This document shows positions 53 through 61,576 of a DNA stretch of 64,000 bases, piece after piece. Position 1 is the first letter of the stretch. Each line of letters opens with the position of its first letter. The stretch lies in NCBI GenBank assembly GCA_035418665.1, contig DAOLRO010000001.1, positions 6,089-70,088 on the forward strand, written 5' to 3'. Position numbers and translations under genes: made by a program. The notes under the pieces were generated by a model. That model did not search any database. It saw nothing but the letters and a program-made list of their open reading frames with translations, and was not told the DNA's origin. The DNA comes from Phycicoccus sp. Its GTDB lineage: Bacteria; Actinomycetota; Actinomycetes; Actinomycetales; Dermatophilaceae.

Positions 53-633
53 GGTGTGGATTCTGCCCTGTCGATCGAGTCGTTGTCGGGATGGAGTACT
101 GGCACTCCGGCACCGGTCCACGATGCGGGCAACACCGTGGATCGGCGGTCGGTGAGGGGCGAGTTGGCGCCGGGCGCCACCGGCTTCGCGGTGTGAAGCA
201 CCGCGGCGGGGTGGACGTCCTGACTTGTCGGGTTGGTCCTGACGGCCACTCCGAGCGTCCACACGGCCGTGGCGCCGAGCCCGGCCACGGTCGAGGCGAG
301 GACAACCGACCGGAGGATGCTTCGGTGGGCTGGCGGCGCCGAGGGAGCCATGAGGGGCAAGGGCGCCATGGAAGCCGCCGGTCTCGGGACCCCACGCGCA
401 GACTCCGGGCCACCCAGCTCACGGCACGCCATCGCGAGCAGTTGGGCATGCAGGTTTCGGGACACGGCTGGGCCCGACGACAAGCGAGCCTGCAGCCGAC
501 GCTCCTGGCTCACGGCAACGACGCAGTGCTGACAGGTCACGAGATGTCGATCCCACGCCCTGGTGCGTTCGACCGGAAGACGACCCACGGCATACTCGGG
601 CAGTTCGGGCCCGCCACAGCGGACCCGGATCAC
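49..633 (-). CDS. Zinc-binding anti-sigma factor (RseA-like, zf-HC2)
   Basis: HLVTCQHC matches HxxxCxxC; C-terminal TM segment; overlaps the sigE stop. Confidence 0.8.
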
Positions 634-1373
634 AGCGCGCCCGTGGCCGGTCGCATCGAGAGGCGACGCTTCGGACGGGTCGTCACGTGCGTCTCGGGCT
701 TCGGCGCGCGGTGCGCAAGTGCCTCGCGCAACTGCGTGCGGCCACGGTGGATGCGAGAGCGCACCGTCCCGAGCTTGATCCCAAGCGTCGCCGCGATCTC
801 CTCGTAGGAGAGGCCCTCGATGTCGCAGAGCACCACCGCTGCGCGGAAGTCGGGGGCAAGGGCATCGAGGGCCCGCTGCACGTCATCGTCGAAGTGGCTC
901 TCGGCATAGACCTGCTCGGGGCCCCGTTCGCGGCTGGTCAAGCGGGCGGCCGAGTCCTCCGAGAGGGCATCGAAGCGGATCCGCTGCTTGCGGCGCATCT
1001 TGTCGAGGAAGACGTTGGTCGTGATGCGGTGCAGCCAGCCCTCGAAGGTGCCGGGGGTGTAGGAGTGCAGCGAGCGGAAGACCCGGATGAAGACGTCGTG
1101 GGTGAGGTCCTCTGCGTCGTGCACGTTGCCGGTCAACCGGTAGGCGAGTCGGTAGACGCGCGCCGAATGCTGCTCGACGATCTCTTCCCAGGTCGGCGGC
1201 ACCCACGTCTCGGTGGTCGAGTCGGAGAGGGTGGTGGCGGCGGCGGAGGCTGTGCTTTCCGTGGCGCTGTCGGCGGTCAGGGTCGTCATCGTCATCGTCA
1301 TCGCTGTCGGTCCAGTCCTCGGGTCGGGGGCCGTTGCACGGGTCGTGTCGGTGCCCCCATGAGACGTCGTCAT
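630..1373 (-). CDS. sigE: ECF RNA polymerase sigma factor SigE
   Basis: [56 protein letters not shown]. Start uncertain. Confidence 0.93.
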
Positions 1374-1450
1374 GGCCCGAATTGTTCCCGTCGAGTCTGG
1401 ACGTCTCCTGTGAGTCAGCGGCGAATCCGCCGCGAGTAGGGTTGCCTCGC

Positions 1451-2086
1451 ATGAGCACCTTGAAGCCCGCCAGTTGGTCCTACGCCGAAGAATTCGTCGC
1501 CGAGCCGGAAGCCACCGAGGCTGCCCGCCGTCGCGGCATCGAGTTCGGGGACGCAACCCCGGTCGGCACGGGCGCAGGAGCTCTCCTCCAGGTGATCGCT
1601 GCGTCCATCCAGGCACGCCATGTCATCGAGATCGGCAGCGGCGCCGGCACCTCCGGCCTCTGGCTACTCGGCGGGATGCCGATCGACGGTGTCCTCACGA
1701 CGATCGAAGTCTCACCCGAGCACGCGCAGGCGGCCAAGGACGCGTATGCCGGGGCGGGAGTGGCACACCAGCGCACCCGCGTCATCACGGGCCGTGCCTC
1801 CGACGTGCTGCCCCGGATGAGTGATGGGGCCTATGACCTGGCCCTCATCGACGCCGACAAGGTGAGTTATCCGCTCTATGTCGAGCATGCGATCCGTTTG
1901 CTGCGATCGGGGGGCGTGCTGGCCCTCGACAACATGCTCTGGCACGACAAGGTCGCTGACCCCGCAGCGCGTGACGAGTCCACGAGCATCCTGCGGGACC
2001 TGGGCAAGTTGATCCGCGACGATGAGCGACTGCTCACCGCGCTGGTGCCCGTGAGCGACGGACTCCTGCTCGCCGTCAAGCGCTGA
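1451..2086 (+). CDS. O-methyltransferase (Methyltransf_3)
   Basis: [15 protein letters not shown] motif, DLALIDADK; divergent from sigE as commonly seen in Actinobacteria. Confidence 0.9.
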
Positions 2087-2129
2087 TTCACGCCTGTGGC
2101 CCGACAGTCCCTCTGCCAGACGGCAAGGG

Positions 2130-2495
2130 TCAGGCGGATTGGTCGAGACCCGGTCCCGCTCCCCGTCGAAAGGCCGCCGGCCCCTCGGCAATGGCGACGA
2201 CCTCATAGTCCTCGATGATGATCGGCGCGGACCCGATCAACTCGCTGCCCGGGGAGGTCGCGGCGTCGGCCTCGAACTGGGTCCGGAAGCGGTCGCGCTC
2301 ATGTTCGGAGTCGAAGACGTAGGTCCCCTCGAACCACTCCCCTTCGCGCATCCGCCACACCTTGAACGCCAGGCCGTCAAGGAACATGAACCTCGCGATC
2401 GAGGTGCCGACGACATATTCGCGCAATTGGTGGGCCACCTCGGGCCCGCAGCCCTTGAGGGACCAACGCACCGCCAGCCCGTATCCGGCGTTCAT
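2130..2495 (-). CDS. Small hypothetical protein, possibly YdhR-like alpha/beta barrel
   Basis: GLAFKVWRMREGEWFEGTYVF pattern; 121 aa; purine-rich RBS upstream. Confidence 0.6.
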   Translation of the reverse strand: MNAGYGLAVRWSLKGCGPEVAHQLREYVVGTSIARFMFLDGLAFKVWRMREGEWFEGTYVFDSEHERDRFRTQFEADAATSPGSELIGSAPIIIEDYEVVAIAEGPAAFRRGAGPGLDQSA

Positions 2496-2609
2496 TGGAC
2501 ATCCTTCCGGGAAGGGAACAGGTCGTTGCGCAGCACGCTAGGTCGCCGGTGATCTCCCCGGCCACACCGTCTCACCGATTGGGGTTGGGGGCCGGCCACG
2601 GTGAGACGC

Positions 2610-2644
2610 CGAAGGGGCCCGCACCGTGGGTGCGGGCCCCTTCG
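2610..2644 (-). terminator. GC-rich hairpin downstream of the DUF3117 gene
   Basis: CGAAGGGGCCCGCACC-gtg-GGTGCGGGCCCCTTCG perfect stem. Confidence 0.7.
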
Positions 2645-2683
2645 AGAGGCTGGGCCATTCGGCCGTCTCTCACGGGTGCGAGG

Positions 2684-2857
2684 TCACTTGAGGCCTTCGC
2701 AGTTGTCGATGGCCACGCCGAGTGCCTTGACCTCCTCGGCGTTCATCTCGATGACGATGCGACCGCCACCATCCGCGGGCATCCGCAGGACGAAGCAACG
2801 CCCCTCCTTGACCACCTCGAGAGAGCCATCGCCCGTCCTGGGCTTCATTGCCGCCAT
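2684..2857 (-). CDS. DUF3117 family protein
   Basis: MAAMKPRTGDGSLEVVKEGR..MPADGGGRIVIEM signature. Confidence 0.9.
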   Translation of the reverse strand: MAAMKPRTGDGSLEVVKEGRCFVLRMPADGGGRIVIEMNAEEVKALGVAIDNCEGLK

Positions 2858-2965
2858 GGGTAAATCCCTTCGTCGTGGCCCCACTCGCCATCGCGGGGCA
2901 TTCACTTCACCGGCAGGGTCCGGTGGCCGAGGACCATTATCCCGCGCTTGCGGCGTGCATCCTAA

Positions 2966-4252
2966 TCACGGTGGGCGTGACCCCCACGGCGTGTAGGTGA
3001 GGAAGGTGGCGGTCCACCAGACCATGCCCACGACCAACAGGGCGAGCAGCAGAGCCACCCGTCGCTTCCAATGCCGCACGATCCCGTCGCCGGTGGAGGT
3101 GCGCATGGCCACGCTCGCGAACAGGGCCGCGAGGGGAAAGTCCAGGAGCAGGAAGCGCCACATGGAGGTGATGGGCCGCACGACAGCGAACAGGTAGAGG
3201 GGGTAGGCCACCGCCCACACCCGGAGCTCAACGGGGATCCACCGTCCGTGCCGGCCGAGGACGAGGGCGATGTAGGTGCCCACGAGGCCGACGAGGACGA
3301 TCACTCCCGCTGCCCCCTTGCTCTCCCAGGCCCATTGCAACCAGAGCACGAAGGGGCCCGCACTGGGTTGCATCCCCCAGGCCCGCTGCACGTCGAAGAA
3401 GGCCGTCGGTATGCCGCTCACCTGGCCGGCGATGGCAGGCCACAGGATGCCCGATATCCCCGTGAGCCCAACCATGGCCAGCGCCGCCGTGCGTTGACCA
3501 TGGAGCGGCGCCTTGCCGCCCTGTTGGTCCTCACGCCACCGCAAGAACAGATGGACCACGACGGCCAATCCCATGGCGGGGGCCACAGCGCGGGTCAGGC
3601 CCAGTGGCACGGCGAGGAGTGCCACGACCCAGTACCTGCGCTGGAGGAGGGCCAGCAGGCTGCCCGCGATGAGCACCATCGCGAGCGCTTCCGTGTAGGG
3701 CTTGAGCAGCACCGTCGTGGCGGGGTAGAAGCACCAGAGGACGGCAGCCAGGAGGGCCAGGCGTTCGCGCTCCGGCCGAGGCTCGGCGTGCACACCGTGG
3801 CGCAGGGTCGCCCAGATGAGAATCGTCGAGAGGGCACCGAGCCCGAGGTTGAGAAGGACCCCCGCAGCGAGGAACGGGACGCCGAGTGCCATCAGGCCGC
3901 GGAGGATCATCGGGAAGAGCGGATAGAAGGCCCACTCGCTGTAGGTCAGGACACCGGTCTCCGGGTCACCCGGGAGCGGCACGGGATAGCCATGGCGGGC
4001 GATCCGTTCGTACCATTCCGTGTCCCACAGCGGGAGCAGGTCGAGGACACCAGGGTCATCGGTGCCCACTCCGGCGGGGTTCTGAAAATGGTTCGCCGCA
4101 ACCCAGAGGCAACCCCACCCGATGAGCCGGGACACGGCATACACGATCAGCAAGGTGCGCACGGGATGGGCCATGGCCTTCGCCGACCACCCGCCCCGGG
4201 CGGGCAAGAGATGCCCCGCGCCCTGGGCAGCCACAGCCGAACCCTCAACCAT
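2966..4252 (-). CDS. Polytopic GT-C glycosyltransferase (PIG-V-like mannosyltransferase)
   Basis: WDTEWYERIARHGYP, WAFYPLFP and YTEAL motifs; many TM helices. Confidence 0.8.
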   Translation of the reverse strand: MVEGSAVAAQGAGHLLPARGGWSAKAMAHPVRTLLIVYAVSRLIGWGCLWVAANHFQNPAGVGTDDPGVLDLLPLWDTEWYERIARHGYPVPLPGDPETGVLTYSEWAFYPLFPMILRGLMALGVPFLAAGVLLNLGLGALSTILIWATLRHGVHAEPRPERERLALLAAVLWCFYPATTVLLKPYTEALAMVLIAGSLLALLQRRYWVVALLAVPLGLTRAVAPAMGLAVVVHLFLRWREDQQGGKAPLHGQRTAALAMVGLTGISGILWPAIAGQVSGIPTAFFDVQRAWGMQPSAGPFVLWLQWAWESKGAAGVIVLVGLVGTYIALVLGRHGRWIPVELRVWAVAYPLYLFAVVRPITSMWRFLLLDFPLAALFASVAMRTSTGDGIVRHWKRRVALLLALLVVGMVWWTATFLTYTPWGSRPP

Positions 4253-6047
4253 CGCGCCAGCGTCGCACGTCCCAGAAGGCGACGCCGCCTGATTCGGTCG
4301 CCGGGCCCAGGACGGACTCGACACTGACACGGAGCAGGGCATTGTCGGGACGTGGAGGGAGGACGACGAGGTCGGCTCGCCAGAACCGAAGGTCCGAGCG
4401 GAACTGCTCGATCTCGATTGGGGTGGCCACCCGGGGGACCTGGTCCCGCGCGATCTCGGCCAACCATTGGGAGAACGGGCGGCGTACGGCCCCACGGGTA
4501 CCCACGCCCGAGCCACTACCGTCTGGCCCCATGAAATAGCCCTCGACGAGCGGGAACTCCCACCGCGCGCTCGCCTGCCAGTCGTTGGCTCGCATATCGA
4601 CGATGTCGGGGGGAGGCACACCCAACACTGCGCCGCCATCCAGGTAGGAACGCCAATCGCCCGACGTGAAGAACTCCGGGACGACGGGGCGCGGGTCGGC
4701 CCACAACCGCGTCGGGACCATCGGGGCCAAGGCGAGGGTGACGGCGACCCCGATGACGCCGAGAGGGCCCCAACGTTGCCAGATCGGGTCGCCGGAATGT
4801 TGGCGCACTCGAACCCTGGTCGGGCCCCATGACCGCCGGATGGCCCAGTCCAGAGCGGCCACGAGAATGGCGGCCGCGGCGGGGACCGTGACGAGCGTCA
4901 ACCGCGTCGGGAGCACGGACTCGAACAGGGGCAGATCCGCGACGAGAGACCAGAGTCCGGGGATCGACGTGGCCTTCCCGTGCAAGGTCACCTCGCTGCC
5001 GAGGGAGAGCCAGACACTCACCAACACGACAAGGGCGCTGGCGCGCACGACGGGGCGGCGGAGGAGGAGCACGACCAAGCCCAAGAGCACGGGCCAGAGC
5101 GGCACCCCGAAGAAGGCGTTCTCCTCGGTCCTGTTCATCGACAAGGCCGCCGAAGCCCAGGGGTCGGCACCGATCGTCCGCGTCGCCCTCCCCCACAGCG
5201 AGGCCAGGTCGTTGGTGGCCACCGGCTGCCACATCGACGTGTAGCTCTGGGGCCCGGCGAACTGCCACCACAGTGGGAAGGCGAAGAGCAGGACCGTGGT
5301 GAGAACCCCAATGGCGACACCGGGCAGCATCGTGCGCCAGGGCAATCGCCGCTGCACAAGCATCGCCAGCGCCGCGATGGCGATCCCCACCGCAGCCAGA
5401 AGAAGGACCTCCTCACCCATCCACAGTTGCCAGGTCACCACGAGGCCGAGCACGGTCCCCTTGCGCCACACCAGTCGTCGGGGGTGAGCCTGTCCGAGGT
5501 CGATCAGTCGATCGATGATCACCGGCACGAGGAATTGGGCGAGAAAGTTCGGGTGGCCGTTGCCGTGGGAGACCATGGCCGGGGAGAAGCCCACGAACAG
5601 GCCCCCGATGAATGCGGCGGCGCGGTGCGCTCCCATCCGCCGGACGAACAGTGCATACCAGCACCACGCCGTGGCCGCGAAGCCGAGCCACTCGATGAGC
5701 AGGAAGGTCCAGTGCGGCCCCAACGTGAGGGTGATCGGAGCAAACGGGATCCCCAGACCCATGACCGTCGCATTGGCGAGCATGTTGACGCCGGTCGGGT
5801 GGTTCTGGAGGGTCGAGAAGAGGGGGTTGGAGAATGTGGCCAGACTGTGGGCCGTGGCTCCGAAGTACCACTCGAAGGCCTGCTGGTCCTGCACACCCTG
5901 CGAGAGGTAGGTGCCTCTGGGATCCACGAAGAGACGGCTCAGCATCCAGAACGCCACCACCGCGTATGCCGTGGCTGCCGCGGCATCGGCCCTTGACCAG
6001 CGCAGTGGCGGCTGCGCGTCAGCGGTCGAGGGCGGCGAGGAGCTCAT
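4245..6047 (-). CDS. Polytopic membrane protein, probable GT-C glycosyltransferase
   Basis: DQQAFEW loop after TM1, NHPTGVNMLAN, GFSPAMVSH, many TMs and a soluble C-terminus. Confidence 0.7.
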   Translation of the reverse strand: MSSSPPSTADAQPPLRWSRADAAAATAYAVVAFWMLSRLFVDPRGTYLSQGVQDQQAFEWYFGATAHSLATFSNPLFSTLQNHPTGVNMLANATVMGLGIPFAPITLTLGPHWTFLLIEWLGFAATAWCWYALFVRRMGAHRAAAFIGGLFVGFSPAMVSHGNGHPNFLAQFLVPVIIDRLIDLGQAHPRRLVWRKGTVLGLVVTWQLWMGEEVLLLAAVGIAIAALAMLVQRRLPWRTMLPGVAIGVLTTVLLFAFPLWWQFAGPQSYTSMWQPVATNDLASLWGRATRTIGADPWASAALSMNRTEENAFFGVPLWPVLLGLVVLLLRRPVVRASALVVLVSVWLSLGSEVTLHGKATSIPGLWSLVADLPLFESVLPTRLTLVTVPAAAAILVAALDWAIRRSWGPTRVRVRQHSGDPIWQRWGPLGVIGVAVTLALAPMVPTRLWADPRPVVPEFFTSGDWRSYLDGGAVLGVPPPDIVDMRANDWQASARWEFPLVEGYFMGPDGSGSGVGTRGAVRRPFSQWLAEIARDQVPRVATPIEIEQFRSDLRFWRADLVVLPPRPDNALLRVSVESVLGPATESGGVAFWDVRRWRDG

Positions 6048-6402
6048 CAACCTGCTCCATCCGGTAGCCCCGCAACACGACGGGGAAGGTCACGTCGGCG
6101 GCCGGACGGCTCGGGGTCTCCACACCGGCGTCCTCGAGGGGGCCCAGCCACTGGATCCACTCCTCGAGGTGCGCATCGACCGGCCCGGGGTCGTAACCCC
6201 GCAGCCCGGTCTCGAAGCGCACGTCGCGCAACTCCTGCGCCGTGAACCCACGATCAAGTGGCAGATCCAAGGGTGGCACGGAGCTCACGGGCGCCGGCAG
6301 CGGGTCGGTTCGAAGGCCTCGCCGCGACGCCCACACACCCAGCGCCACCACCGAGCAGCCGGTCAGGGCCAACGCCACCCAGATCGGCCAGTCACCCCTC
6401 AC
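6019..6402 (-). CDS. DivIVA-domain protein with N-terminal TM
   Basis: Two DivIVA-like repeats: VRFETGLRGYDPGPVD and VTFPVVLRGYRMEQVD. Confidence 0.85.
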   Translation of the reverse strand: MRGDWPIWVALALTGCSVVALGVWASRRGLRTDPLPAPVSSVPPLDLPLDRGFTAQELRDVRFETGLRGYDPGPVDAHLEEWIQWLGPLEDAGVETPSRPAADVTFPVVLRGYRMEQVDELLAALDR

Positions 6403-7241
6403 TCGAGCTCCTTGGGTTCCTCGGATGCTGGCAGGACGGGTGCCCGACTCCCCCGCAGGCCACCGCCTGAGCGATCCGAGGCCTCGATGCGCGCCACGGC
6501 CTCGTCGACGTCATCGGTGACGGTCATCAGGTCGAGATCGCCCGGGCTGATCGTCCCGTGGGCGAGCGCGGCCTCGCGCAGCCAGTCGAGCAGGCCCGAC
6601 CAGTACGACGTCCCCATGAGGACGATCGGGAAACTGGTCACCTTCTTGGTCTGGACCAAGGTGATGGCCTCGAAGAGTTCATCGAGGGTCCCGAACCCAC
6701 CGGGCAGCACGATGAAGCCTTGCGCATATTTGACGAACATCGTCTTGCGCGCGAAGAAGTAGCGGAAGTTGACTCCGAGGTCGACGTATTCGTTGAGGCC
6801 CTGCTCGAAGGGCAGCTCGATCCCCAACCCCACAGAGACCCCACCAGCCTCGACGGCCCCCTTGTTCGCGGCTTCCATGGCACCGGGCCCGCCACCGGTG
6901 ATCACGGCATATCCCGCAACCACGAGGGCCTTGGCGACCCGGATCCCCAGGTCATAGGTGGGGTCCTCGGGCTTGGTGCGTGCGGACCCGAAGACACTGA
7001 CCGCCGGCCCGACCTCGGCGAGCGCGCCAAAACCTTCGACGAACTCCGCCTGGATGCGCATCACCCGCCAGGGGTCGGTGTGGACCCAGTCGGCACTCCC
7101 CCGCGAGTCAAGCAGTCGCTGGTCGGTGGTCTCCTCGGGCACCTGACCGCGGCGCATGACGAGCGGACCCTTGAAGTAGTCCCCTTGGGCCCCGGTCACC
7201 TCGGCTCCAGACCCCTTGCCGGAGCGACCCTCGACGGTCAT
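6399..7241 (-). CDS. LOG family (TIGR00730) nucleotide phosphoribohydrolase
   Basis: VFGSAR, TGGGPGAMEAANKGA, PGGFGTLDELFE. Confidence 0.92.
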   Translation of the reverse strand: MTVEGRSGKGSGAEVTGAQGDYFKGPLVMRRGQVPEETTDQRLLDSRGSADWVHTDPWRVMRIQAEFVEGFGALAEVGPAVSVFGSARTKPEDPTYDLGIRVAKALVVAGYAVITGGGPGAMEAANKGAVEAGGVSVGLGIELPFEQGLNEYVDLGVNFRYFFARKTMFVKYAQGFIVLPGGFGTLDELFEAITLVQTKKVTSFPIVLMGTSYWSGLLDWLREAALAHGTISPGDLDLMTVTDDVDEAVARIEASDRSGGGLRGSRAPVLPASEEPKELE

Positions 7242-8344
7242 GACGGGCCTCCGCTCAGCCAGCGGATCATGGCCGCCTCAGCCGCGACCAATTGATCGAC
7301 GGGGCACTGCTCGTCGTCCATATGGGCGAGGTTGGGGTCGCCGGGACCGAAGTTCACCGCCGGCACCCCCATGGCCGAGAACCTCGCAACGTCGGTCCAG
7401 CCCTGCTTCCCCGTCACGTCCACACCGAGCGCCGCGACGAAGGCCTGCGCCGCCGGAGTGCCGAGCCCGGGCAAGGCGCCACCGGCGTTGTCCGTGATGG
7501 CCAACTCGAAGCCGTCGAAGACGGTGCGCACGTGCGCCTCGGCCTCCTCCTCAGACACATCCGGCGCGTAGCGATAGTTCACCGTCACCACGCACCGGTC
7601 GGGGATGACATTGCCGGCGATGCCACCGCTGATCCCGACCGCGTTGAGGGCCTCGCGATACTCCAGGCCGTCGATGGTCGCCACTCTTGCCTCGTATGCC
7701 GTGAGTCGCCTGAGGATTTCGCCGGCGTCGTGGATGGCGTTGTGTCCTTTCCAGGGGCGAGCCGAGTGTGCGGCGATGCCCTTGGTGGTGATCTCAGCGC
7801 GGAGTGTGCCCTTGCAGCCCCCTTCGACGTTGCCGTCCGTGGGCTCGAGGAGCACGGCGAAGTCGGCATCCTCGATGAGGTCGGGTCGCTGCTGCTGGAC
7901 GTGGAGAAGGCCGTTGTATTCGGACTCGATCTCCTCGCCCTCGTAGAAGACAAAGGTGAGGTCGCGGTTGGGTTGGCGCACCTCGTGGGCCACGCGCAAC
8001 TGGACAGCCACACCCCCCTTCATGTCGACCGTGCCGCGGCCCCAGAGGACCTCCTCCTCACCCACCCGCTCGCGCCGGACGGGCAGATTGCTCGGGTCCT
8101 TGGTGAGGGGGACGGTGTCGATGTGCCCGGCGAGCACCACGCGGTCGGCGTGGCCCAGGTCGGTCCTGGCAATCAGGGTGTTGCCCAAGCGAGTGACCGT
8201 CAGGTGTGGCAGCCCGGACAGCACGTCCTCGATGGCATCGGCCAGGGCAGCCTCGTCGAGGCTCACGGAGGGGATGTCGCACAGGGCTCCGGTCAGGGTG
8301 ACCACATCGGTGGTGAGGTCGATCGTCAAGGGGTGAGACGGCAT
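7238..8344 (-). CDS. dapE: Succinyl-diaminopimelate desuccinylase
   Basis: AGHIDTVP, GRGTVDMKGG, YEGEE, GWTDVARF, AHMDDE; divergent from dapD. Confidence 0.93.
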   Translation of the reverse strand: MPSHPLTIDLTTDVVTLTGALCDIPSVSLDEAALADAIEDVLSGLPHLTVTRLGNTLIARTDLGHADRVVLAGHIDTVPLTKDPSNLPVRRERVGEEEVLWGRGTVDMKGGVAVQLRVAHEVRQPNRDLTFVFYEGEEIESEYNGLLHVQQQRPDLIEDADFAVLLEPTDGNVEGGCKGTLRAEITTKGIAAHSARPWKGHNAIHDAGEILRRLTAYEARVATIDGLEYREALNAVGISGGIAGNVIPDRCVVTVNYRYAPDVSEEEAEAHVRTVFDGFELAITDNAGGALPGLGTPAAQAFVAALGVDVTGKQGWTDVARFSAMGVPAVNFGPGDPNLAHMDDEQCPVDQLVAAEAAMIRWLSGGPS

Positions 8345-8403
8345 ACCGATGAGCCTAACGACCTCACCCGGGGACCTTCGGCGATCCACGTACCCTTGTC
8401 GCC

Positions 8404-9351
8404 ATGACGCAGACCCGCACCGCCTGGGGCCACGGCCTGTCCACCCGCACGGCCGATGGCACCGTGCTCGACACCTGGTTCCCTCGGCCGGTGCTCGGCA
8501 CACCTCCGGAGGTGGCTGACGAGGCGTATGCCGCGGACGTCGCCCTGCTCGACCCGCTTGTCCGCGATGACGAGGCTCGCGGTGTCCAGATCGGCAGGGG
8601 CCTGGTAGCGATCGATCTCGACGCGGCACCCACCTCGACGGAGGACGCCTACCTCCGGCTGCACCTGCTCTCCCACCGCCTCGTCACCCCGAACTCGATC
8701 ACCCTGGACGGGATCTTCGGGGTCCTCGCCAATGTCGTGTGGACCAACCATGGACCGTGCGCGGTCGAGGGTTTCGAACGAACCCGGGCACGGCTCATGG
8801 CGCGTGGCCCGGTGCAGGTTTTCGGGATCGACAAGTTCCCTCGGATGACCGACTACGTCGTGCCCAGTGGGGTGCGGATCGCGGACGCCGACCGGGTCCG
8901 GCTCGGAGCCCACCTCGCTCCCGGGACGACGGTCATGCACGAGGGTTTCGTGAACTTCAACGCCGGCACGCTCGGCACCTCGATGGTCGAGGGGCGGATC
9001 AGTCAGGGTGTCGTGGTCGGTGACGGCTCGGACATCGGGGGTGGCGCCTCGACGATGGGCACCCTGTCCGGCGGCGGCAACGAGCGCGTCAGCCTCGGCG
9101 AGCGCTGTCTGTTGGGTGCCGAGTCGGGGCTGGGGATCGCGCTCGGGGACGACTGTGTGGTCGAGGCCGGGCTCTACGTCACGGCCGGCACCAAGGTGAC
9201 TCTGCCGGATGGCACCGTCGCAAAGGCCCGCGATCTGTCGGGACAGTCCAACCTGCTCTTCCTGCGCGACTCCGTGACCGGGGCCGTCCTGGCGCGCCCG
9301 CGCGACGGCCACGGGATCGTCCTCAACTCGGCCCTCCACGCCAACGACTGA
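8404..9351 (+). CDS. dapD: Tetrahydrodipicolinate N-succinyltransferase
   Basis: [43 protein letters not shown], hexapeptide repeats. Confidence 0.95.
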
Positions 9352-9357
9352 GCGCCC

Positions 9358-51005: not shown

Positions 51006-51042
51006 CCAGGGACCGCCTCAGATCGTGAGGGGCGGTCCCTGG
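51006..51042 (+). terminator. Hairpin after aqpZ
   Basis: CCAGGGACCGCC / GGCGGTCCCTGG arms. Confidence 0.7.
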
Positions 51043-51087
51043 ACCACCTTCGAGGTCCGCGTCGGTGCCTGCTCCTAGCATGAGCCC

Positions 51088-52356: not shown

Positions 52357-52382
52357 CGGTGCCTCGACATAAGGTGTGCGAT

Positions 52383-52625
52383 GTGGCAGCCAAGGAGAAC
52401 GACGTGGCATCGGGCGCCGGCGCCAACTCAGACGTCGCAGCGATGCCTTACGAGGTCGCTCGCGACGAGTTGGCCTCGATCGTGGGTCGGCTCGAGAGCG
52501 GTCAGGTGGGCCTCGAGGAGTCGATGACCCTGTGGGAGCGCGGCGAGGCCCTCGCAGCGCACTGCGCGACGTGGCTCGACGCGGCCGAGGCCAAGCTCAA
52601 CGCCACTCAGTCGCCACCCGCCTGA
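52383..52625 (+). CDS. xseB: Exodeoxyribonuclease VII small subunit
   Basis: YEVARDEL..LESGQVGLEESMTLWERGEALA. Confidence 0.93.
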   Translation: MAAKENDVASGAGANSDVAAMPYEVARDELASIVGRLESGQVGLEESMTLWERGEALAAHCATWLDAAEAKLNATQSPPA

Positions 52626-52693
52626 CCCGGTCACCCGATCGGTGACCGTGGCCTGCCGCGCCGGTGGCCCCCACAGCCGGCCGCTGGCCCGCG

Positions 52694-53257
52694 TCAGCGA
52701 GGCGTGACGACCTCGAGGTGCTCGATGAGCTGCGCCAACTCCTCGAAGGTGCCTGTCCCCGTGACCAAGGTCGTCAGCTCACCCTTGGCGCCGGGCACGT
52801 GCACGAGCGAGTTCTGGACCTTGGCGCCGCGCTCGTACTTCGTCCAGGTCCGGCCATCGACCTCGACCGTGCCGACCTTCGTGGCGCGATTGACCTCGGT
52901 CTCGACCCACTTCGAAGTGGCGTCCATGGTCTGCTCGACCGACGCGTAGTTCCCTGAGGGGGCTTGGTAGCCGGCCAGCCAGGTCATGGCACCTTCACCC
53001 GTGCGAACGTAGCGCGCGCTCGTCGCGGTCCAACCCTTGGGGAGCCCCACGGCGGTGACAATGGGCCAGCCGCTCTCCCGGACCACGTCCTGCGCTGTGC
53101 GCTGCACGTCGACGGGTGGCCCCGAGAGGGAGTTGACCCGGGGCACCATGAAGATGATGACGAGCATCAGCCCACCGATGACCAGCATCGAGCGCACCAT
53201 GTTGGGCAGCGAGCCCATCGAATAGCGACTGCGCGGGGCCTGGTCGGGTGTGGTCAC
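52694..53257 (-). CDS. DUF4245 family membrane-anchored protein
   Basis: NMVRSM plus TM, LPKGWTATSA, VTGTG; usual position after xseB. Confidence 0.8.
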   Translation of the reverse strand: MTTPDQAPRSRYSMGSLPNMVRSMLVIGGLMLVIIFMVPRVNSLSGPPVDVQRTAQDVVRESGWPIVTAVGLPKGWTATSARYVRTGEGAMTWLAGYQAPSGNYASVEQTMDATSKWVETEVNRATKVGTVEVDGRTWTKYERGAKVQNSLVHVPGAKGELTTLVTGTGTFEELAQLIEHLEVVTPR

Positions 53258-53382
53258 CGCACCATGGTCGCCGACGAAGCCACCGGCCACCGAATCGGGC
53301 CCATGGGGCGCGCACTAAAGTTGTGGGTGAGGGCCGCGGCGAGGCACGCGACCCGCGTCGACCGAAGGTGGTGAACGGCGAG

Positions 53383-54309
53383 ATGGGCCCGCGTGTCCTT
53401 GTCATCGGTGAGGTACTCATCGACATCGTGCGCACTCCGGACGGGCAGGTGAGCGAACACGTCGGTGGATCCCCGGCCAATGTCGCCACCGGGCTGGCAC
53501 GCCTGGACCATCCCACCGACTTCGCCTCGACCCTCGGCCGTGACGAGCGCGGGACCGCCGCTCTGGCCCATCTCAAGCGGCATGGGGTCGAGACCCTCCC
53601 CTCGAGCCGCACGGCGCATCCGACCTCGGTCGCCGACGCCACACTCGACGAGTCCGGCGCCGCGACCTACATCTTCGCCCTGCACTGGAACCTCGCTCCT
53701 GTCCCGATCCGCAGCGGTGTCGGGCACCTGCACACCGGCTCGATCGCCGCGACCCAACCGCCCGGCGGCGAATTGGTCGTGCGCACCATCCGCGAGGCTC
53801 GCGACGATGCCACGGTGTCCTACGACCCCAACATCCGCCCGAGCATCATGGGGGCTGCCGAGCACGTGCGGCCGCGGATCGAGGAACTCATCGCCCTCAG
53901 CGACGTCGTCAAGGCCAGTGAGGACGACTTGGACCACCTCTACCCCGGTCGGGCGATCGACGGCGTGCTGCTCGACTGGTCGCACTTGGGCGCTGCCCTC
54001 ACAGTCGTGACTCTGGGCGGCGACGGGGTCGCCTACCGGGTCCCCGCCACCGGCGAGGTATGCCGGGTGCCGGCTGCCGTGACCGACCCGGCTGCCGTCG
54101 TGGACACCGTTGGCGCGGGCGACTCCTTCATGGCCGGACTGATCTCGGCCCTGCTCGATGCCGGCCTGCTCGGTTCGGCCGACTCCCGCCTCCGCCTGCG
54201 CACGGCCGACCGGGCGGCGATCGAGCCCGCGATCACCCGGGCCCTCGCCACCAGTGGCGTGACGGTCCGCCATCAGGGCGCCTACTCCCCCACTCGCGAC
54301 GAACTCTGA
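53383..54309 (+). CDS. PfkB family carbohydrate kinase (fructokinase-like)
   Basis: GEVLID, GGSPANVA, YDPNIRP, VKASEDD, VDTVGAGDSF. Confidence 0.92.
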   Translation: MGPRVLVIGEVLIDIVRTPDGQVSEHVGGSPANVATGLARLDHPTDFASTLGRDERGTAALAHLKRHGVETLPSSRTAHPTSVADATLDESGAATYIFALHWNLAPVPIRSGVGHLHTGSIAATQPPGGELVVRTIREARDDATVSYDPNIRPSIMGAAEHVRPRIEELIALSDVVKASEDDLDHLYPGRAIDGVLLDWSHLGAALTVVTLGGDGVAYRVPATGEVCRVPAAVTDPAAVVDTVGAGDSFMAGLISALLDAGLLGSADSRLRLRTADRAAIEPAITRALATSGVTVRHQGAYSPTRDEL

Positions 54310-54344
54310 CCTCCTGAACAACTCAAGAGCCTGAAAGGTTGACG

Positions 54345-56066
<1,722 letters not shown>

Positions 56067-56069
56067 CAC

Positions 56070-56585
56070 ATGGCTGACGAGATCAAGACCCCACGCACCT
56101 TCGACGACTTGCTCGCCGCGAACAGAGAGTTCGCAGCCACCAACGAGATCCTCGGTTTCGACGGCATCGCTCACGCCGGGGTCGCCGTGGTCACCTGCAT
56201 GGACAGCCGGATCGACCCGCTGGGCATGCTGGGGCTCAGGCCCGGCGACGCCAAGATCTTCCGCAACCCGGGCGGGCGGGTCACCGGCAATGCTCTCGAG
56301 GCGCTGGTCCTGGCCGTCCATCTGCTCAACGTCGACCGCATTGTCATCGCCCCGCACACCCGATGCGCCATGGCCAGCAGCACCGAACAGGAGTTGCGCG
56401 ACCGGATCAGCGCGTCCTCGGGCACCGACGCCGCTTGGCAGGGCTTCCACGTCGTCCGCGACCAGAAGGAAGCCCTGCGTGCCGATGTGGCTGCCGTTCG
56501 CGCACATCCCCTCATCGCGGACCGCGCCCTCGTCGGGGGCTTCATCTATGACGTCGACACCGGCCTGCTGGGCCCTGTCGACTGA
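56070..56585 (+). CDS. Beta-carbonic anhydrase (short, clade D-like)
   Basis: CMDSR, RNPGG, HTRC. Confidence 0.9.
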   Translation: MADEIKTPRTFDDLLAANREFAATNEILGFDGIAHAGVAVVTCMDSRIDPLGMLGLRPGDAKIFRNPGGRVTGNALEALVLAVHLLNVDRIVIAPHTRCAMASSTEQELRDRISASSGTDAAWQGFHVVRDQKEALRADVAAVRAHPLIADRALVGGFIYDVDTGLLGPVD

Positions 56586-56603
56586 CCCTCCCCCACGTCA
56601 GCG

Positions 56604-57290
56604 ATGCAGCGCCCGCAACGCCCCCAACGCACCCGGACCCAGCCGGGCACGCGGCCCACGACTCCGGAGCATGCGTGGGCGGTGCTGCGTGCCGGAAATG
56701 CCCGCTTCATGGCCGATGCCCGCGCCCACCCGCACGAGGGCCTGCACGTCCGCAAGCGACTGGCCGGCAAACAGAACCCCTTCGCCATCTTTTTCGGCTG
56801 TGCCGACAGCCGCGTGGGCGCCGAGATCATCTTCGACCAAGGACTCGGTGACCTCTTCGTCATCCGCACAGCCGGGCACGTCATCGACCTCAGCGTCCTG
56901 GGCTCGATCGAGTACGGGATCGCCAAACTCCACATCCCGCTCATCGTTGTGCTCGGGCACGACTCTTGCGGCGCGATCACTGCGACCGCAGAGGCCGTCG
57001 CCACTGGCGACATGCCAGGCGGCTTCATCCGCGACATCGTCGAGCGGGTCACCCCCTCGCTCTTCACCGCCCGCCGCGACAATCCCACGGCAACCGTCGA
57101 CGAGATCGAGACCGAACACATCCGGCAGACTGCCACGCTGCTCGCCGAGCGCTCGAGCCTGATCGCGACCCGGATCGCCGAGGGTCGGCTGGCGATCGCG
57201 GGGGCGCAATATGCCCTGGCCGAAGGTGAGGCCCGACTCAAGTGCGCGATCGGGCCCCTGGGCGAGACCCCGACGATCTCCGACGTCTGA
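56604..57290 (+). CDS. Beta-carbonic anhydrase
   Basis: GNARF, CADSR, FDQGLGDLFVIRTAG, GHDSCGA. Confidence 0.93.
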   Translation: MQRPQRPQRTRTQPGTRPTTPEHAWAVLRAGNARFMADARAHPHEGLHVRKRLAGKQNPFAIFFGCADSRVGAEIIFDQGLGDLFVIRTAGHVIDLSVLGSIEYGIAKLHIPLIVVLGHDSCGAITATAEAVATGDMPGGFIRDIVERVTPSLFTARRDNPTATVDEIETEHIRQTATLLAERSSLIATRIAEGRLAIAGAQYALAEGEARLKCAIGPLGETPTISDV

Positions 57291-57306
57291 TCTGGGACAG
57301 TGGCGC

Positions 57307-58128
57307 ATGCCCAACTCCGTGCGGGTCGACTCCCTGCGCATCCACCCCCTCAAGTCCGGCGCCATCCGCGCGCTCGAGCGTTCTGAAGTCACCCCTGCCG
57401 GACTGACGGGTGACCGTCGCTGGATGGTGGTCGACGCCGCCGGTGAGTGCGTGACGGCACGCAACGACCGCGCCCTCGTCACGATCTCCGCAGAACCCTT
57501 GCCGGACGAAGGTCTTCGCCTCACCTCCCGCTCAGGAAGGACCGTGGAGGTATGCCGTCCGCTCACCTCTCCCTCCGACTCCCCTGCGCGATCGGTCACC
57601 GTGCACGGGCGCGACGCGGCCCCCGGCCTGCCCCTCGACGAGCCCGCCCAGGCCCTCGTCCGTGAGGTCCTCGGACGCGACGACGTGACCGTCCTCTGGT
57701 GCAGCGACGAGACCGTGAGAAGACTCAACCCGGACTTCTCCCGCGACGGCGACTCCACGGCATACGCGGACGGCTATCCAGTGACCCTCGCGAGCCTGGC
57801 GTCGCTGCGCGAACTCAACCGCCTGGGGGACATGGATCTGCCGATCGATCGCTTCCGCCCCAACATCGTCATCGACGGCGACCTCACACCCTTCACCGAG
57901 GACACGTGGAGACGTGTGCGGATCGGCGAGATCGACTTCCGGGTGGCGCGTGGCGTCGATCGGTGCTCGATGACCCTGCTCGACCCCGACACCCTGACGA
58001 CCGGCGCCGAGCCCATCCGGACCTTGTCCAAGCACCGCAAGTGGGAGGGCAAGACGTGGTTCTGCGTGCACCTCATCCCCGAGGGCTCCGGCGGCCTCGC
58101 GGTGGGTGACCCGGTCTCGATAGCGTGA
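57307..58128 (+). CDS. MOSC domain protein
   Basis: IHPLKS, GDRRWMVVD, ADGYP, RFRPNIVI, RCSMT. Confidence 0.9.
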   Translation: MPNSVRVDSLRIHPLKSGAIRALERSEVTPAGLTGDRRWMVVDAAGECVTARNDRALVTISAEPLPDEGLRLTSRSGRTVEVCRPLTSPSDSPARSVTVHGRDAAPGLPLDEPAQALVREVLGRDDVTVLWCSDETVRRLNPDFSRDGDSTAYADGYPVTLASLASLRELNRLGDMDLPIDRFRPNIVIDGDLTPFTEDTWRRVRIGEIDFRVARGVDRCSMTLLDPDTLTTGAEPIRTLSKHRKWEGKTWFCVHLIPEGSGGLAVGDPVSIA

Positions 58129-58133
58129 GGCCC

Positions 58134-59537
58134 ATGTCGACCCAACCCCCTGCCACCGCACTCCCCCAGTTCCCTGAGGGCTTCCTCTTCGGGGCCGCGA
58201 CCGCGTCCTTCCAGATCGAGGGTTCGACGACGGCCGACGGGCGATCGAGGTCGATCTGGGACACCTTCTGCGAGATCGAGGGCAAGGTTGCCAACAAGGA
58301 CACCGGCGACCCGGCCTGCGACCACTACCGCCGGATGCCGGAGGACGTCGTCCTCATGCAGGAGCTCGGGCTGCAGGCCTATCGCTTCTCGGTCGCCTGG
58401 CCCCGCGTGATCCCCACGGGCACCGGTGCCATCAACCCGGCGGGGATCGACTTCTACGACCGGCTCGTCGACCAGTTGCTCGGCGCGGGGATCCGTCCCG
58501 TCGTCACGCTCTACCACTGGGATCTGCCCCAGGTGCTCGAGGACCTCGGTGGCTGGCAGAGCCGGGACATCGCGGGCTGGTTCGGTGAATACACCGACGC
58601 AGTGACCTCGGCGCTCGGCGACCGGGTCACCAATTGGACCACCCTCAACGAGCCGTGGTGCTCCTCGATCCTCAGCTACACCTTGGGTCACCACGCGCCG
58701 GGGCACTTCAGCCAGGAGGAGGGCCTCATCGCGGCTCACCACCTCATGCTCGCGCACGGGACCGCCGTGCCGATCATCCGGGCCAACGCGCCCGGGGCCG
58801 AGGTGTCGATCACCCTCAATCCCACCCAGGTCATCGGGCCGGAGTCGCCCACTGACGCGGATCGCGACGCCGTGCGTCGCGCCGACAACATCCTCAACGG
58901 CATCTTCTTCGGCCCCCTCTTCCACGCGGCCTACCCCAACACCATGCTCGAGGATGTCGACCACCTCACCGACGCCTCATGGATCCACGATGGCGACCTC
59001 GAGACGATCAGCACCCCCCTCGACAACCTCGGCATCAACAACTACTTCCCGACGCGGGTCAAGGCGGGCGTGCCCGGCGCCAACCCCCTGGGTATGCCGG
59101 GATGTGAGGGCGTGGAGGGCGTCGCCCCGGAGGGGCAACTCACCGACATGGGTTGGGAGTGCAACCCCGGCGCACACCGCGACATCCTCAAGCGGTCAGC
59201 AGAGGAGAGCGGCCTCCCGATCTACGTCACCGAGAACGGCTCGGCCTGGCCCGGTGACGTCGTGACGGACGACACCGGGAGTCCGGCCGTCCACGATCCG
59301 GAGCGCACGGCATACCTGCTTTCCCACTTGGCGGCCGTGCGGGAGGCCATCGACGACGGCGCGGACATCCGTGGCTATTTCGCCTGGTCGCTCATGGACA
59401 ACTTCGAGTGGGCCTTCGGCTACGACAAGCGCTTCGGGATCGTCCACGTCGATTACGACAGCCAGGTCCGCACGATCAAGGACTCGGGTCACACCTACAC
59501 CGAGGTGATCAAGAGCAACACCGCCAACCGAGGGTGA
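58134..59537 (+). CDS. Beta-glucosidase (GH1)
   Basis: FLFGAATASFQIEG, TLYHWDLP, TLNEP, YVTENG, WSLMDNFEW. Confidence 0.95.
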   Translation: MSTQPPATALPQFPEGFLFGAATASFQIEGSTTADGRSRSIWDTFCEIEGKVANKDTGDPACDHYRRMPEDVVLMQELGLQAYRFSVAWPRVIPTGTGAINPAGIDFYDRLVDQLLGAGIRPVVTLYHWDLPQVLEDLGGWQSRDIAGWFGEYTDAVTSALGDRVTNWTTLNEPWCSSILSYTLGHHAPGHFSQEEGLIAAHHLMLAHGTAVPIIRANAPGAEVSITLNPTQVIGPESPTDADRDAVRRADNILNGIFFGPLFHAAYPNTMLEDVDHLTDASWIHDGDLETISTPLDNLGINNYFPTRVKAGVPGANPLGMPGCEGVEGVAPEGQLTDMGWECNPGAHRDILKRSAEESGLPIYVTENGSAWPGDVVTDDTGSPAVHDPERTAYLLSHLAAVREAIDDGADIRGYFAWSLMDNFEWAFGYDKRFGIVHVDYDSQVRTIKDSGHTYTEVIKSNTANRG

Positions 59538-59719
59538 CTGCCGCCCGACCGGCCGGCACGAGTCCCGCGGCCCTCGCCTGCCCTTCTCATACCCCCGGGG
59601 GTCACCAGAAGATCACGATTTGCCCGCTCCGGGCGACAAAACGGTCGAGATGATGGACAGTTCCGGCGCACGATGACAGCGTGGGGCCGCACACCATCAT
59701 TCGACCAAGGAGTTCTCCG

Positions 59720-60565
59720 GTGTCTTTTGCTCCCCGTCGGCGCGTGGCCCTCACGGCCGCAGCCGTCCTGTCCTCGCTCGCGCTCGCCGCGTGCGGTTCC
59801 TCCTCCTCTGACGGCGGCAGCTCCTCGGCCGCCGCGGGTTCCGGTGACTCCGGCGTGACGCTGCTCAAGGCCGGCACGCTGCAGGTCTGCACCCACCTGT
59901 CGTACAAGCCCTTCCAGTTCAAGGACGACTCCGGGGCCGTGGTCGGCTTCGACGTCGACCTGATGGACCTGGTCGCCAAGAAGCTCGGCGCCAAGCAGGA
60001 GATCGTCGACATCGACTTCGCCCAGATCACCTCGGGCGCGGTCTTCGCGGCCAAGAAGTGTGACGCCGGTGCCGCCGCCACGACGATCAACGACAAGCGC
60101 AAGGGCGCCATCCTCTTCTCCGACCCGTACTTCGACGCCACCCAGGCGCTCCTGGTCAAGAAGGGCTCGGGCATCACCGACCTCACCGGCCTCAAGGGCA
60201 AGAAACTCGGAGTCCAGACCGACACCACCGGCGCTGAGTACGGCGAGAAGAACAAGGACGCCAACGGCTACGAGGTCGTTGTCTTCGACGACCTGCCCAC
60301 CCAACTCGCGGGCGTGCTGTCGGGCCGCGTCGACGCCGCCGTCAACGACAACGGTGTCGTCTTCGACTACGCCAAGGACAACCCGGGCACCGAGGTCACC
60401 AAGGAGTTCAACACGGGTGAGCAGTACGGCCTGATGTTCCAGAAGGACAACGCCAACGGCACCGCGCTCGCCAAGGTGACCAACGAGGTCCTCAAGGAAG
60501 CCAAGGCCAGCGGCGAGTACAACACCATCTTCAAGAAGTGGTTCGGCGTCGACGCCCCCAAGTGA
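59720..60565 (+). CDS. Polar amino-acid ABC substrate-binding lipoprotein
   Basis: AAGGAG RBS, LALAAC lipobox, GFDVDL, FSDPY, EQYG. Confidence 0.92.
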   Translation: MSFAPRRRVALTAAAVLSSLALAACGSSSSDGGSSSAAAGSGDSGVTLLKAGTLQVCTHLSYKPFQFKDDSGAVVGFDVDLMDLVAKKLGAKQEIVDIDFAQITSGAVFAAKKCDAGAAATTINDKRKGAILFSDPYFDATQALLVKKGSGITDLTGLKGKKLGVQTDTTGAEYGEKNKDANGYEVVVFDDLPTQLAGVLSGRVDAAVNDNGVVFDYAKDNPGTEVTKEFNTGEQYGLMFQKDNANGTALAKVTNEVLKEAKASGEYNTIFKKWFGVDAPK

Positions 60566-60587
60566 CGCGTCACCCTTTCACCACTCG

Positions 60588-60625
60588 CGAGGCGGCGGTA
60601 CGGTTCAGTCCGTGCCGCCGCCTCG
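60588..60625 (+). terminator. Intercistronic hairpin
   Basis: CGAGGCGGCGGTACGG / CCGTGCCGCCGCCTCG arms with a bulge. Confidence 0.6.
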
Positions 60626-60751
60626 GCGCGTGTCACGAGCAGTGATCACGGCATCGCTTCACAGCAGCACCTGCACGGCCTGCACCACCCGCACCATCCC
60701 ACGGCACCACCCGAATGACCCGGCCCAGACCGGCGACGACCAGGAGTCCTG

Positions 60752-61576
60752 ATGAGCACAGTGACGGCTGACCCACCCACCAAGAAGAGGCTGTCGCCGC
60801 GCAAGCGCGCCCAGCGGATGCGGTGGGCGCAATACCTCGTCCTGGCGATCGTCACGGTCGTGGCCATCAGCGTGGCCGACTGGGGCCAGATCCAGTCGGT
60901 CTTCTTCCGCGGGGACATGATCAAGGAGACCTTCGCCCAAGGCCTCCCGACGGCCTTCAAGAACACCATCGTCTACACCCTCGGCGCCTTCGTCCTCGGC
61001 CTGATCTGGGGCACGATCCTGGCCCTCATGCGGCTCTCGTCCGTGGCCCCCTATCGCTGGCTGGCCTCGACCTACATCGAGTTCTTCCGCGGGCTGCCGG
61101 CCATCGTCGTCTTCATCGCCTTCGGCCTGCTCCCGCTGGCCTTCCCGGGTCTGGTCATCCCCTTCGACCCCTACGGCACGGTCTGGATCGCGCTGGGACT
61201 CGTAGGTGCGGCATACATGGCCGAAACCATTCGCGCCGGCATCCAGGCCGTCCCCAAGGGACAGGTGGAGGCCGCCCGATCATTGGGTATGCCGTCCGGC
61301 GTGGCCACGCGGAAGATCGTCCTTCCGCAGGCCTTCCGGATCATCACTCCCCCGTTGACCAACGAGTTGATCCTCCTCGTCAAGGACTCCTCGCTCGTCT
61401 ACATCCTCGGCCTCTCGCGCGACGCCTTCGAGTTGACGAAGTACGGTCGAGACATCGCCAACACCAACGCCAACCTCACGCCGCTGGTGATCGCCGGCTT
61501 CTGCTACCTGCTCATCACCCTCCCGCTCTCCATGGTCGTCCGGCGCATGGAAGCCCGTCAGAAGAAGGAGCGCTGA
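60752..61576 (+). CDS. Polar amino-acid ABC permease
   Basis: [37 protein letters not shown]. Confidence 0.93.

Follow-up and report, generated by a model that had tools for sequence, protein, structure and literature searches.

To our knowledge, recognition words that saturate a genome are well described in only a few groups, namely the Neisseriaceae, the Pasteurellaceae and the cyanobacteria. The uptake signal sequence (USS) is flanked by AT-rich tracts. The dialects of the DNA uptake sequence (DUS) of the Neisseriaceae are read by the minor pilin ComP (PMC3630211), and PMC2817400 and PMC13756078 treat such words in the same sense. The present analysis concerns the octamer GTATGCCG (reverse complement CGGCATAC) in a 64-kb stretch of DNA from Phycicoccus sp., contig DAOLRO010000001.1, referred to as the window. 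The octamer is a real, strong and family-wide signal at the level of DNA, and its copies are spaced separately on each strand.

The octamer shares with the DUS a density of approximately one copy per kb, a non-palindromic form, both orientations, occurrence in coding and intergenic DNA, inverted pairs, evenness and lineage dialects (PMC3630211). The letters ATGCCGT are common to GTATGCCG and the AT-DUS, which is likely a coincidence. As reported for the USS, a short core is accompanied by a long, weaker flank and most copies lie in open reading frames (ORFs) with a frame bias (PMC2817400, PMC1939737), although the flank here is rich in pyrimidines on one of its strands and has a 17-18-nt echo. 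Like the Chi sites of RecBCD and AddAB, it is an oriented 8-mer depleted in acquired DNA (PMC8022716), and directional reading would explain its same-strand spacing. The highly iterated palindrome HIP1 of cyanobacteria is similarly an octamer of very high abundance that its clade retains both inside and outside coding DNA, with variant words in some lineages (PMC13756078); the present octamer differs in being non-palindromic, in its long graded flanks and in having no co-occurring methylase among the two examined.

An exact scan found 49 copies in the window, of which GTATGCCG is the commonest 8-mer. A sequence-only reading of the window had listed 48 positions, every one of which is exact. 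It had given the strand split as 24:24; the split is indeed near-even, at 25:24, as a plus-strand copy at 54058 had been missed. The sites are as follows.

Plus strand, GTATGCCG, 25 sites spanning 1744..61294: 1744, 3409, 5964, 7694, 8526, 13816, 15920, 18938, 23197, 24867, 30166, 31539, 32543, 34854, 35609, 37697, 44892, 45504, 50269, 50380, 51942, 54058, 57550, 59092, 61287.
Minus strand, CGGCATAC on the plus strand, 24 sites spanning 588..61216: 588, 4135, 8339, 10340, 10640, 15079, 16657, 20278, 21721, 22810, 24564, 24922, 32565, 34874, 36117, 36977, 44073, 44936, 48552, 50115, 54892, 57758, 59308, 61209.

Relative to gene calls made for this analysis, 22 copies are sense, 12 antisense and 15 intergenic or partial. 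Adjacent copies face in opposite directions in 35 of 48 pairs, and pairs less than 900 bp apart comprise 8 on the same strand and 22 on opposite strands. The eight near-matches noticed earlier all retain TATGCCG and differ at an outer base.

The assembly containing the window (G000) comprises 3.03 Mb in 320 contigs at 67.9% GC; it is 78% complete, with approximately one-fifth of its genes missing. It carries 2,461 copies of GTATGCCG (0.81/kb, or about one per 1,200 bases), the top 8-mer when runs of N are set aside. The observed/expected ratio (O/E) is 22, 60, 40 and 24 under Markov models of order 0, 1, 2 and 3, respectively. The earlier estimate of a 20-fold excess agrees with the order-0 value, and the excess persists against the higher orders and against synonymous shuffling. 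The count is 38 times that of the reversed control, compared with about 4 times for E. coli Chi. Single-mismatch variants mostly lie near expectation, and a near-miss is depleted (GTACGCCG 87 vs CTACGCCG 206). An origin of the octamer through CpG deamination of GTACGCCG was rejected, the precursor being too rare. Contigs from four runs of four other studies match long pieces of window positions 1-20000, mostly with 0-2 differences; because these independent contigs reproduce the window almost letter for letter, an assembly artefact is ruled out. The same DNA is present in activated-sludge and wastewater runs. Only six 26-mers are duplicated among the sites.

The word overrides codon choice. 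Within the 2,959 genes called for G000 there are 1,773 coding copies, as opposed to 171-220 in ten within-gene synonymous shuffles, an excess of about ninefold. Sense copies inside genes number 1,082, and 964 copies occupy the one reading frame that encodes x-Tyr-Ala-x. In the motif context the tyrosine codon TAT stands at 936:54, compared with 3,465:9,784 elsewhere, the alanine codon GCA is used in 530 of 727 cases, and 148 of the 283 ATA codons of the genome lie inside the motif. None of the outcomes named by the sequence-only reading as contrary to its claim (an excess lost on codon and dicodon correction, equally frequent 8-mers of the same composition, strong strand polarity) was found in those examined, with the rare-codon context counts standing in for a dicodon shuffle. 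Density is threefold higher between genes than within them (2.0/kb vs 0.67/kb), is halved in the most codon-adapted fifth of genes, and copies concentrate near gene ends and starts.

Motif copies may also be reused as parts of other signals, i.e., starts, promoters and terminators. Genome-wide, 21 sense copies lie exactly at -2 of a called start, where they supply the ATG, and 33 antisense copies lie at -17/-18, where they likely form the -10 box of leaderless promoters. Inverted pairs are found 3' of stop codons; hairpin copies make up 276 of 2,461 here, as against 74 of 170 for the DUS of N. lactamica. The motif is depleted in mobile or acquired DNA: contigs with 0-1 copy include a prophage (its capsid protein 60% identical to that of Mycobacterium phage Mendokysei), integrase and insertion sequence contigs, and a sugar-synthesis island. 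There is a tight array of five alternating copies in 110 bp (G000:C114:104-220) and a run of four same-strand copies with a 22-bp period (G000:C81:11788-11861). A motif-dense self-regulated gene was considered and dropped.

The spacing of the copies depends on their orientation. In G000, same-orientation pairs 60-900 bp apart amount to 335 of the 792 expected (0.42) and opposite pairs to 880 of 792 (1.11; binomial p 8e-57). The O/E of same-orientation pairs is 0.28-0.44 at 100-800 bp and recovers by approximately 1.5 kb, while convergent and divergent pairs are near 1 beyond 300 bp. Same-strand gaps have a coefficient of variation (CV) of 0.67, compared with 0.96+-0.02 for random placement, and three abundant control 8-mers of G000 showed no self-repulsion. 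Three further genomes were analyzed, with the effect recurring in two other genera: G123 (same 42/89, 0.47, vs opposite 74/89, 0.83; p 0.004), G104 (same 135/193, 0.70, vs opposite 219/193, 1.14; p 9e-6, shorter range) and G099 (same 3/9 vs opposite 10/9, with few sites and a longer range). The repulsion has a range of about 0.6 kb where there are 1.5 copies per kb, of about 1.2-1.5 kb where there are 0.8-1.0 and of about 2 kb where there are 0.33, and these differences indicate that its range scales with spacing. Strand-specific spacing is independent of gene layout, though weakest across convergent genes, with same:opposite counts of 101:352 within genes, 50:128 across co-directional, 10:28 across divergent and 17:25 across convergent genes. 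An asymmetry between the 5' and 3' sides of close pairs was dropped (p 0.69).

Strand counts per contig in G000 are under-dispersed (chi2 31.5, 84 degrees of freedom) and uncorrelated with GC skew; they are more equal than chance because copies of like orientation keep apart. In a closed genome, two 100-kb blocks far from one another gave 54/56 and 48/48. Neither the leading-strand polarity of Chi nor the ori-to-ter polarisation of the FtsK-orienting polar sequences (KOPS) and architecture imparting sequences (AIMS) was seen in the G000 contigs or these blocks. Two known systems served as controls. The DUS of N. lactamica (170 sites, 164 kb) is spaced without regard to orientation (same 43/71, 0.61, vs opposite 50/71, 0.70), which differs from G000 at Fisher p 3e-4. 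Unlike the octamer, Chi of E. coli MG1655 is not self-repelling (first 100 forward sites; same-strand 14/15.6 = 0.90, gap CV 1.02).

A toy gain-loss model, with hand-set parameters that illustrate the logic and are not fitted, was used to compare rules of spacing. In this model a same-strand-rescue rule alone reproduced the pattern (0.38/1.03/1.10); orientation-blind rescue depleted all three pair classes, and convergent pairs were depleted when a directional duplex tract was assumed. The strand rule suggests that rescue would act on one strand or in one direction rather than on a duplex fragment.

Each site extends well beyond the core. The base after it is T in 27 of 49 window copies, as had been counted on 48, and the longer consensus guessed at that time is confirmed genome-wide as GTATGCCG-T(62%)-G(78%). 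With codon position corrected for, flank bias reaches beyond that guess, from about -25 to +49, an asymmetric footprint of about 75 bp. On the 5' side there is A at -9/-8, T at -3 and not-A at -1; the core is followed by T+8, G+9, G+11 and a YCRCCT-like element ending on T+18 (2.4-5.1-fold in four site classes). This element is echoed at +31..+36 and faintly at +48, with CACCT peaks at +14, +30-33 and +48; the profile has an autocorrelation of 0.40 at lag 18, and the motif strand is short of A between +8 and +47. A representative extended site is given below.

57541..57575, plus strand: core at 57550, then TCCGCTCACCT, which supplies the secondary YCRCCT element with its final T at +18.

Sense, antisense and intergenic copies all share this profile. 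The flank score is 4.65 (of 9) at isolated sites, compared with 4.0-4.1 at crowded ones (p 2e-10). G123, G104 and G099 also have T+18, A-8 and an avoidance of T at +15/16; the consensus of G099 covers about 20 bp, C-GTATGCCG-CTGRGCTSGCTCCC, with CT continuing in 56 of 65 sites. A hairpin in the flank was rejected, as there is no base-pair covariation. The footprint has the appearance of a long, graded, one-sided protein contact.

The family sample consisted of 120 genomes at least 90% complete, among which kin are not independent. The sampled family is probably the GTDB Dermatophilaceae. There are 925-5,422 copies in 63 genomes, 150-392 in 12 and 132 or fewer in 45. Named carriers, at loci that had been picked by motif-like pattern, are Knoellia subterranea (8 in 10 kb), Humibacillus xanthopallidus (9 in 20 kb) and Terrabacter lapilli (16 in 20 kb). 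In 296 genomes from other families of the class Actinomycetes, GTATGCCG is at background, with a maximum of 390 in 7.5 Mb; the same holds for 293 genomes when the unpublished G333, G342 and G510 are left out. Orthologous codons were also compared: three motif-rich relatives retain the exact 8-mer in 11/22, 13/42 and 10/18 cases, four motif-poor genomes of similar protein identity in 0/44, and a GGAT genome in 1/51. A scan of viral contigs found three, with 1-3 copies each, and a plasmid search found none from the family among 60 listed of 1,429.

Several genomes use dialects that differ from GTATGCCG by one or two letters: GGATGCCG in G075, G054 and G100, CGATGCGG in G011, and GTACGCCG in G088, G128, G051, G048 and weakly G135. 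All four words keep A at position 3. GTACGCCG had also been read as mere decay (8 of 44 sites in motif-poor genomes); this was rejected and the word kept as a dialect because it is 6-14 times as frequent as CTACGCCG in four genomes, compared with about 1 in true lows. No dialect word was seen in several of the 20 low or intermediate family genomes, each sampled over 20 kb. Quick trees of ComEC and AdnA intersperse the motif states, which suggests an ancestral GTAT with repeated switches and losses. In another family, f7, 10 of 14 genomes carry 1,600-5,000 copies of GKATGCCG. GGATGCCG is abundant in Microbacterium sp. A20 (2,749 copies, the reversed control having 223), which makes Microbacteriaceae the probable identity of f7; the word of f7 may belong to a related but different system, given weak flanks and spacing signal. 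Single 20-kb samples from 17 other families and three f7 genomes, of low power, held no clear word except in G025 (family f2, L184; GGACGCCG 33 per 20 kb vs 6.5 expected) and G040 (family f17, L197; GTACGCCG 13 per 20 kb vs 3.2 expected), which are possible further dialects. An unrelated repeat in G088 (L179-L183) contains AAGTTGGACTGCGTGAA-like words 11-13 times in 120 kb. The signal is non-polar and genome-wide at the DNA level, as claimed earlier, and its statistical hallmarks are those of uptake sequences: both orientations, all frames, forced rare codons, evenness, inverted pairs resembling terminators, depletion in mobile DNA and lineage dialects.

The gene content of the window is that of ordinary actinobacterial housekeeping (sigE, dapE/D/C, gltA, ctaD, dpp ABC, malQ, rmuC, xseA, glmM), and an Rfam search of the window gave no match. 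Particular features in which the motif is involved are as follows.

34839..34896: near-perfect inverted repeat from two motif copies (34854 plus, 34874 minus), just 3' of a peroxiredoxin gene; likely a terminator hairpin, as formed by DUS pairs.
32543..32572: inverted motif pair (32543 plus, 32565 minus), close to the facing 3' ends of an ORF and malQ.
8339..8346, minus strand: copy with its ATG in frame with dapE, which may serve as the dapE start codon.
10340..10647, minus strand: same-strand pair at a spacing of 300 bp, its printed flanks identical; a local duplication that lies upstream of the gltA end and gives one of the 8 same-strand pairs under 900 bp.
37705..44072: motif-free stretch of 6.4 kb, likely acquired; it encodes a heavy-metal P-type ATPase that has 74% identity to a copy on a Microbacterium plasmid.

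The duplication, spaced at about 300 bp between an ORF and gltA (10325-10662), coincides with breaks and loose ends in public contigs. A further 5.2 kb without the motif (24930-30165) covers the highly codon-adapted dipeptide ABC transporter operon.

The favoured explanation, to which we give slightly less than an even chance, is that GTATGCCG(TG) is a tag read on one strand, which favours recombination of that strand and spreads by biased conversion, most likely during transformation. A candidate reader protein would recognise the tag on one strand at a time, and the recognised site would favour recombination of its strand into the chromosome, so that the tag would spread itself through biased gene conversion. 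The most likely setting would be natural transformation via the encoded Tad/ComEA/ComEC/DprA apparatus. A second same-strand copy would add little, as one recognised site would already rescue that strand, while a copy on the opposite strand would serve a different molecule. The step sizes of SSB-like OB folds and of the RecA turn provide a scale for the 3' footprint, whose 17-18-nt echo could reflect single-stranded DNA laid over a repeating binder of either kind. Self-promoting recombination predicts evenness, near-miss depletion, dialect switches and flanks that are stronger where sites are isolated, as observed. It has been reported that tad together with comEA/EC underlies transformation in Micrococcus luteus (PMC4322843).

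Several observations weigh against this explanation. The N. lactamica DUS, a real uptake sequence, is orientation-blind, and an enzyme that scans in one direction would satisfy the same-strand rule equally well. In samples of 120-220 kb the dialect words have weak strand-specific spacing or none (GGATGCCG 0.90 vs 1.07 in G075 and 0.97 vs 1.14 in G193; CGATGCGG 0.84/0.84; GTACGCCG 0.99/1.17). In the motif-rich G099 the 8-mer is kept at 0 of 29 orthologous codons, its sites lying mostly outside aligned coding DNA. The literature found holds no report of transformation in this family. No reader protein was found among the candidates profiled: competence genes are equally present in motif-poor genomes, the gene order of the tad locus is identical in ten genomes of all motif states, and no residue of ComEA (46 rows, by eye), DprA (22 rows) or AdnA (21 rows) follows dialect.

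In detail, comEC, dprA and the tad ATPase are present in 121/121 family genomes (the last over the cut-off in 113), comEA in 32/32 and AdnA in 30/30. The co-occurrence that the sequence-only reading had looked to was not found, as comEC, comEA, dprA, Tad and the two methylases do not track the motif. A lead at AdnA residue 662 (1 of 468 columns), with Gln in all of the motif-poor rows (4/4), did not hold up on 92 genomes: in the wider set Gln occurs in 12 genomes including a motif-rich one, Ala in 21 motif-poor ones, and 29 of 121 genomes had no match. No AdnA column separates GGAT from GTAT genomes. Paralogues of SSB were rejected as readers, with 2-4 copies in all five genomes examined and no tracking. 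The tad-linked helicase, the DUF7059 methyltransferase and TadA gave only 1-4 mostly conservative columns (9-10 rows), and in none of the proteins aligned did a dialect-linked residue hold up.

Certain side observations were made on these genes. The conserved DUF7059 + MTS methyltransferase (L302:1812-3362 and orthologues) is located between topA and the tad/helicase locus whatever the motif state, in the genomes examined. The comEC gene is split near the start of the Competence domain (profile position ~27-50) in 4 of 121 genomes: G127:C17 (21104 and 67617, 46 kb apart), G084:C1 (2175993 and 2204467, 28 kb apart), G109:C43/C44 and G078:C33/C65. These splits look like mobile-element insertions, as in transformable species. 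In the motif-poor G019 (L019, ~9643-9825) comEA is seemingly frameshifted between its SLBB and HhH domains. G104, the genome with most copies (5,422), has two full-length adnA genes (C1:20813-23917 and C2:136436-139531). A four-gene cluster with a 1,455-aa SMC-like ATPase (G000:C18:11127-19401) resembles a Wadjet-type (TIGR02677-80) system.

More tentatively, a sequence-specific single-strand reader may license each incoming or resected strand for recombination and nucleate a directional filament with a 17-18-nt step. It would have written the thousands of strand-spaced sites into genomes across the family, and the switchable dialects would be barriers to gene flow. The system would be a new class of selfish or kin-recognition signal of the chromosome, neither a surface uptake sequence nor Chi. 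No description of the octamer was found in the open full-text literature, subscription journals not being covered; the octamer lists of PMC8022716, held in external datasets that include Terrabacteria, could contain the word.

The main alternative, possible but rather doubtful, is a non-polarised, Chi-like checkpoint, although we know of no Chi for AdnAB. The resecting helicase-nuclease AdnAB, entering at a DNA end, would stop at the first correctly oriented copy and load RecA; as two-ended breaks or incoming linear DNA would need both orientations, each strand would be spaced separately. Such first-encounter scanning predicts same-orientation repulsion with a range that scales with spacing, as observed, and AdnA was present in 30/30 genomes. 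Chi sites have been described as 8-mers enriched in core DNA, with a non-polarised candidate Chi in 23 Vibrio species (PMC8022716). The lack of strand polarity, the absence of same-strand repulsion in E. coli Chi itself and the failure of any AdnA column to track dialect argue against it, and RecC occurs in only 14 of 63 motif-rich genomes.

It is unlikely that the octamer is a classical uptake sequence, in which a surface receptor, either a Tad minor pilin or ComEA/ComEC, would recognise the site in duplex DNA and promote the uptake of DNA from its own clade, as ComP does for the DUS. Density, both orientations, evenness, terminator pairs, the long graded consensus and dialects all match descriptions of DUS and USS (PMC2817400, PMC3630211). 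Of the properties by which such sequences are recognised, over-representation, both orientations, no replichore polarity, evenness, inverted pairs and depletion in acquired DNA are found here; comEA, comEC and dprA are also present, but in motif-poor genomes as well. Orientation-independent action and a type IVa pilus with a ComP-like minor pilin are not found. Uptake by USS is reported to be independent of orientation (PMC1939737), and orientation-blind rescue depletes opposite pairs in the toy model and in N. lactamica, whereas opposite pairs here are not depleted. No PilT was found in five complete (closed) motif-rich genomes, and a motif scan of G000 (78% complete) found no type IVa prepilin, with only Tad/Flp pilins seen; the Tad pilins are 45-140 aa long and poorly conserved. 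Unlike the DUS, the octamer belongs to a monoderm host. The earlier idea of an uptake- or HIP-like system thus stands as to the statistical hallmarks of uptake sequences, and does not as to spacing, PilT and the two methylases of G000. The octamer behaves like an uptake-sequence-type driven motif, yet it lacks two DUS-defining properties and the polarity of Chi.

Less probable again is a one-strand methylation mark, set by a methylase with an asymmetric site, whereby each daughter duplex would need its own even set for strand discrimination in repair, in a HIP1-like drive. Strand-wise spacing without polarity would follow by reasoning, the A at position 3 is kept in all four dialects, and HIP1 has been tied to methylases (PMC13756078). 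The two DNA methylases found in G000, DUF1156 and D12, were the families profiled, and each occurs in only one of five motif-rich relatives; no C5 methylase motif was found in G000. The graded consensus of about 20 bp and the 75-bp footprint exceed a methylase site. Phage TJE1, whose host may not be a carrier, has 2 copies of the site in 49 kb vs 0.9 expected, which amounts to neither avoidance nor accumulation.

There is little to recommend a signal at the level of RNA or transcription, such as pausing or termination of stray transcripts, needed on both strands. Transcription is strand-specific, and the halved density in codon-adapted genes and the clustering near gene ends and starts would suit it. 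The flank profile, however, does not differ between coding copies on the sense and antisense strands, divergent gene pairs still show the repulsion, over a thousand sense copies (1,082) lie inside genes, and Rfam found nothing in the window. A by-product of codon or peptide usage, suggested by the dominant x-Tyr-Ala-x frame, is refuted together with a mobile repeat or assembly artefact by the inverted TAT usage, the ATA codons, the threefold intergenic density, the few duplicated 26-mers and the independent contigs.

The strand-wise spacing indicates that the reader works per strand or per direction, a property not shown by the two known controls. The octamer marks approximately half of a large actinobacterial family, probably that of the phosphate-accumulating wastewater bacteria, and a related word is abundant in Microbacterium. 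If this is true, the octamer would reveal a hidden route of kin-restricted gene exchange, or else the missing Chi-equivalent of actinobacteria. It would also offer a practical tag for engineering these hard-to-transform bacteria, and relatives that have gained, lost or switched the word would be natural pairs in which to look for the reader.

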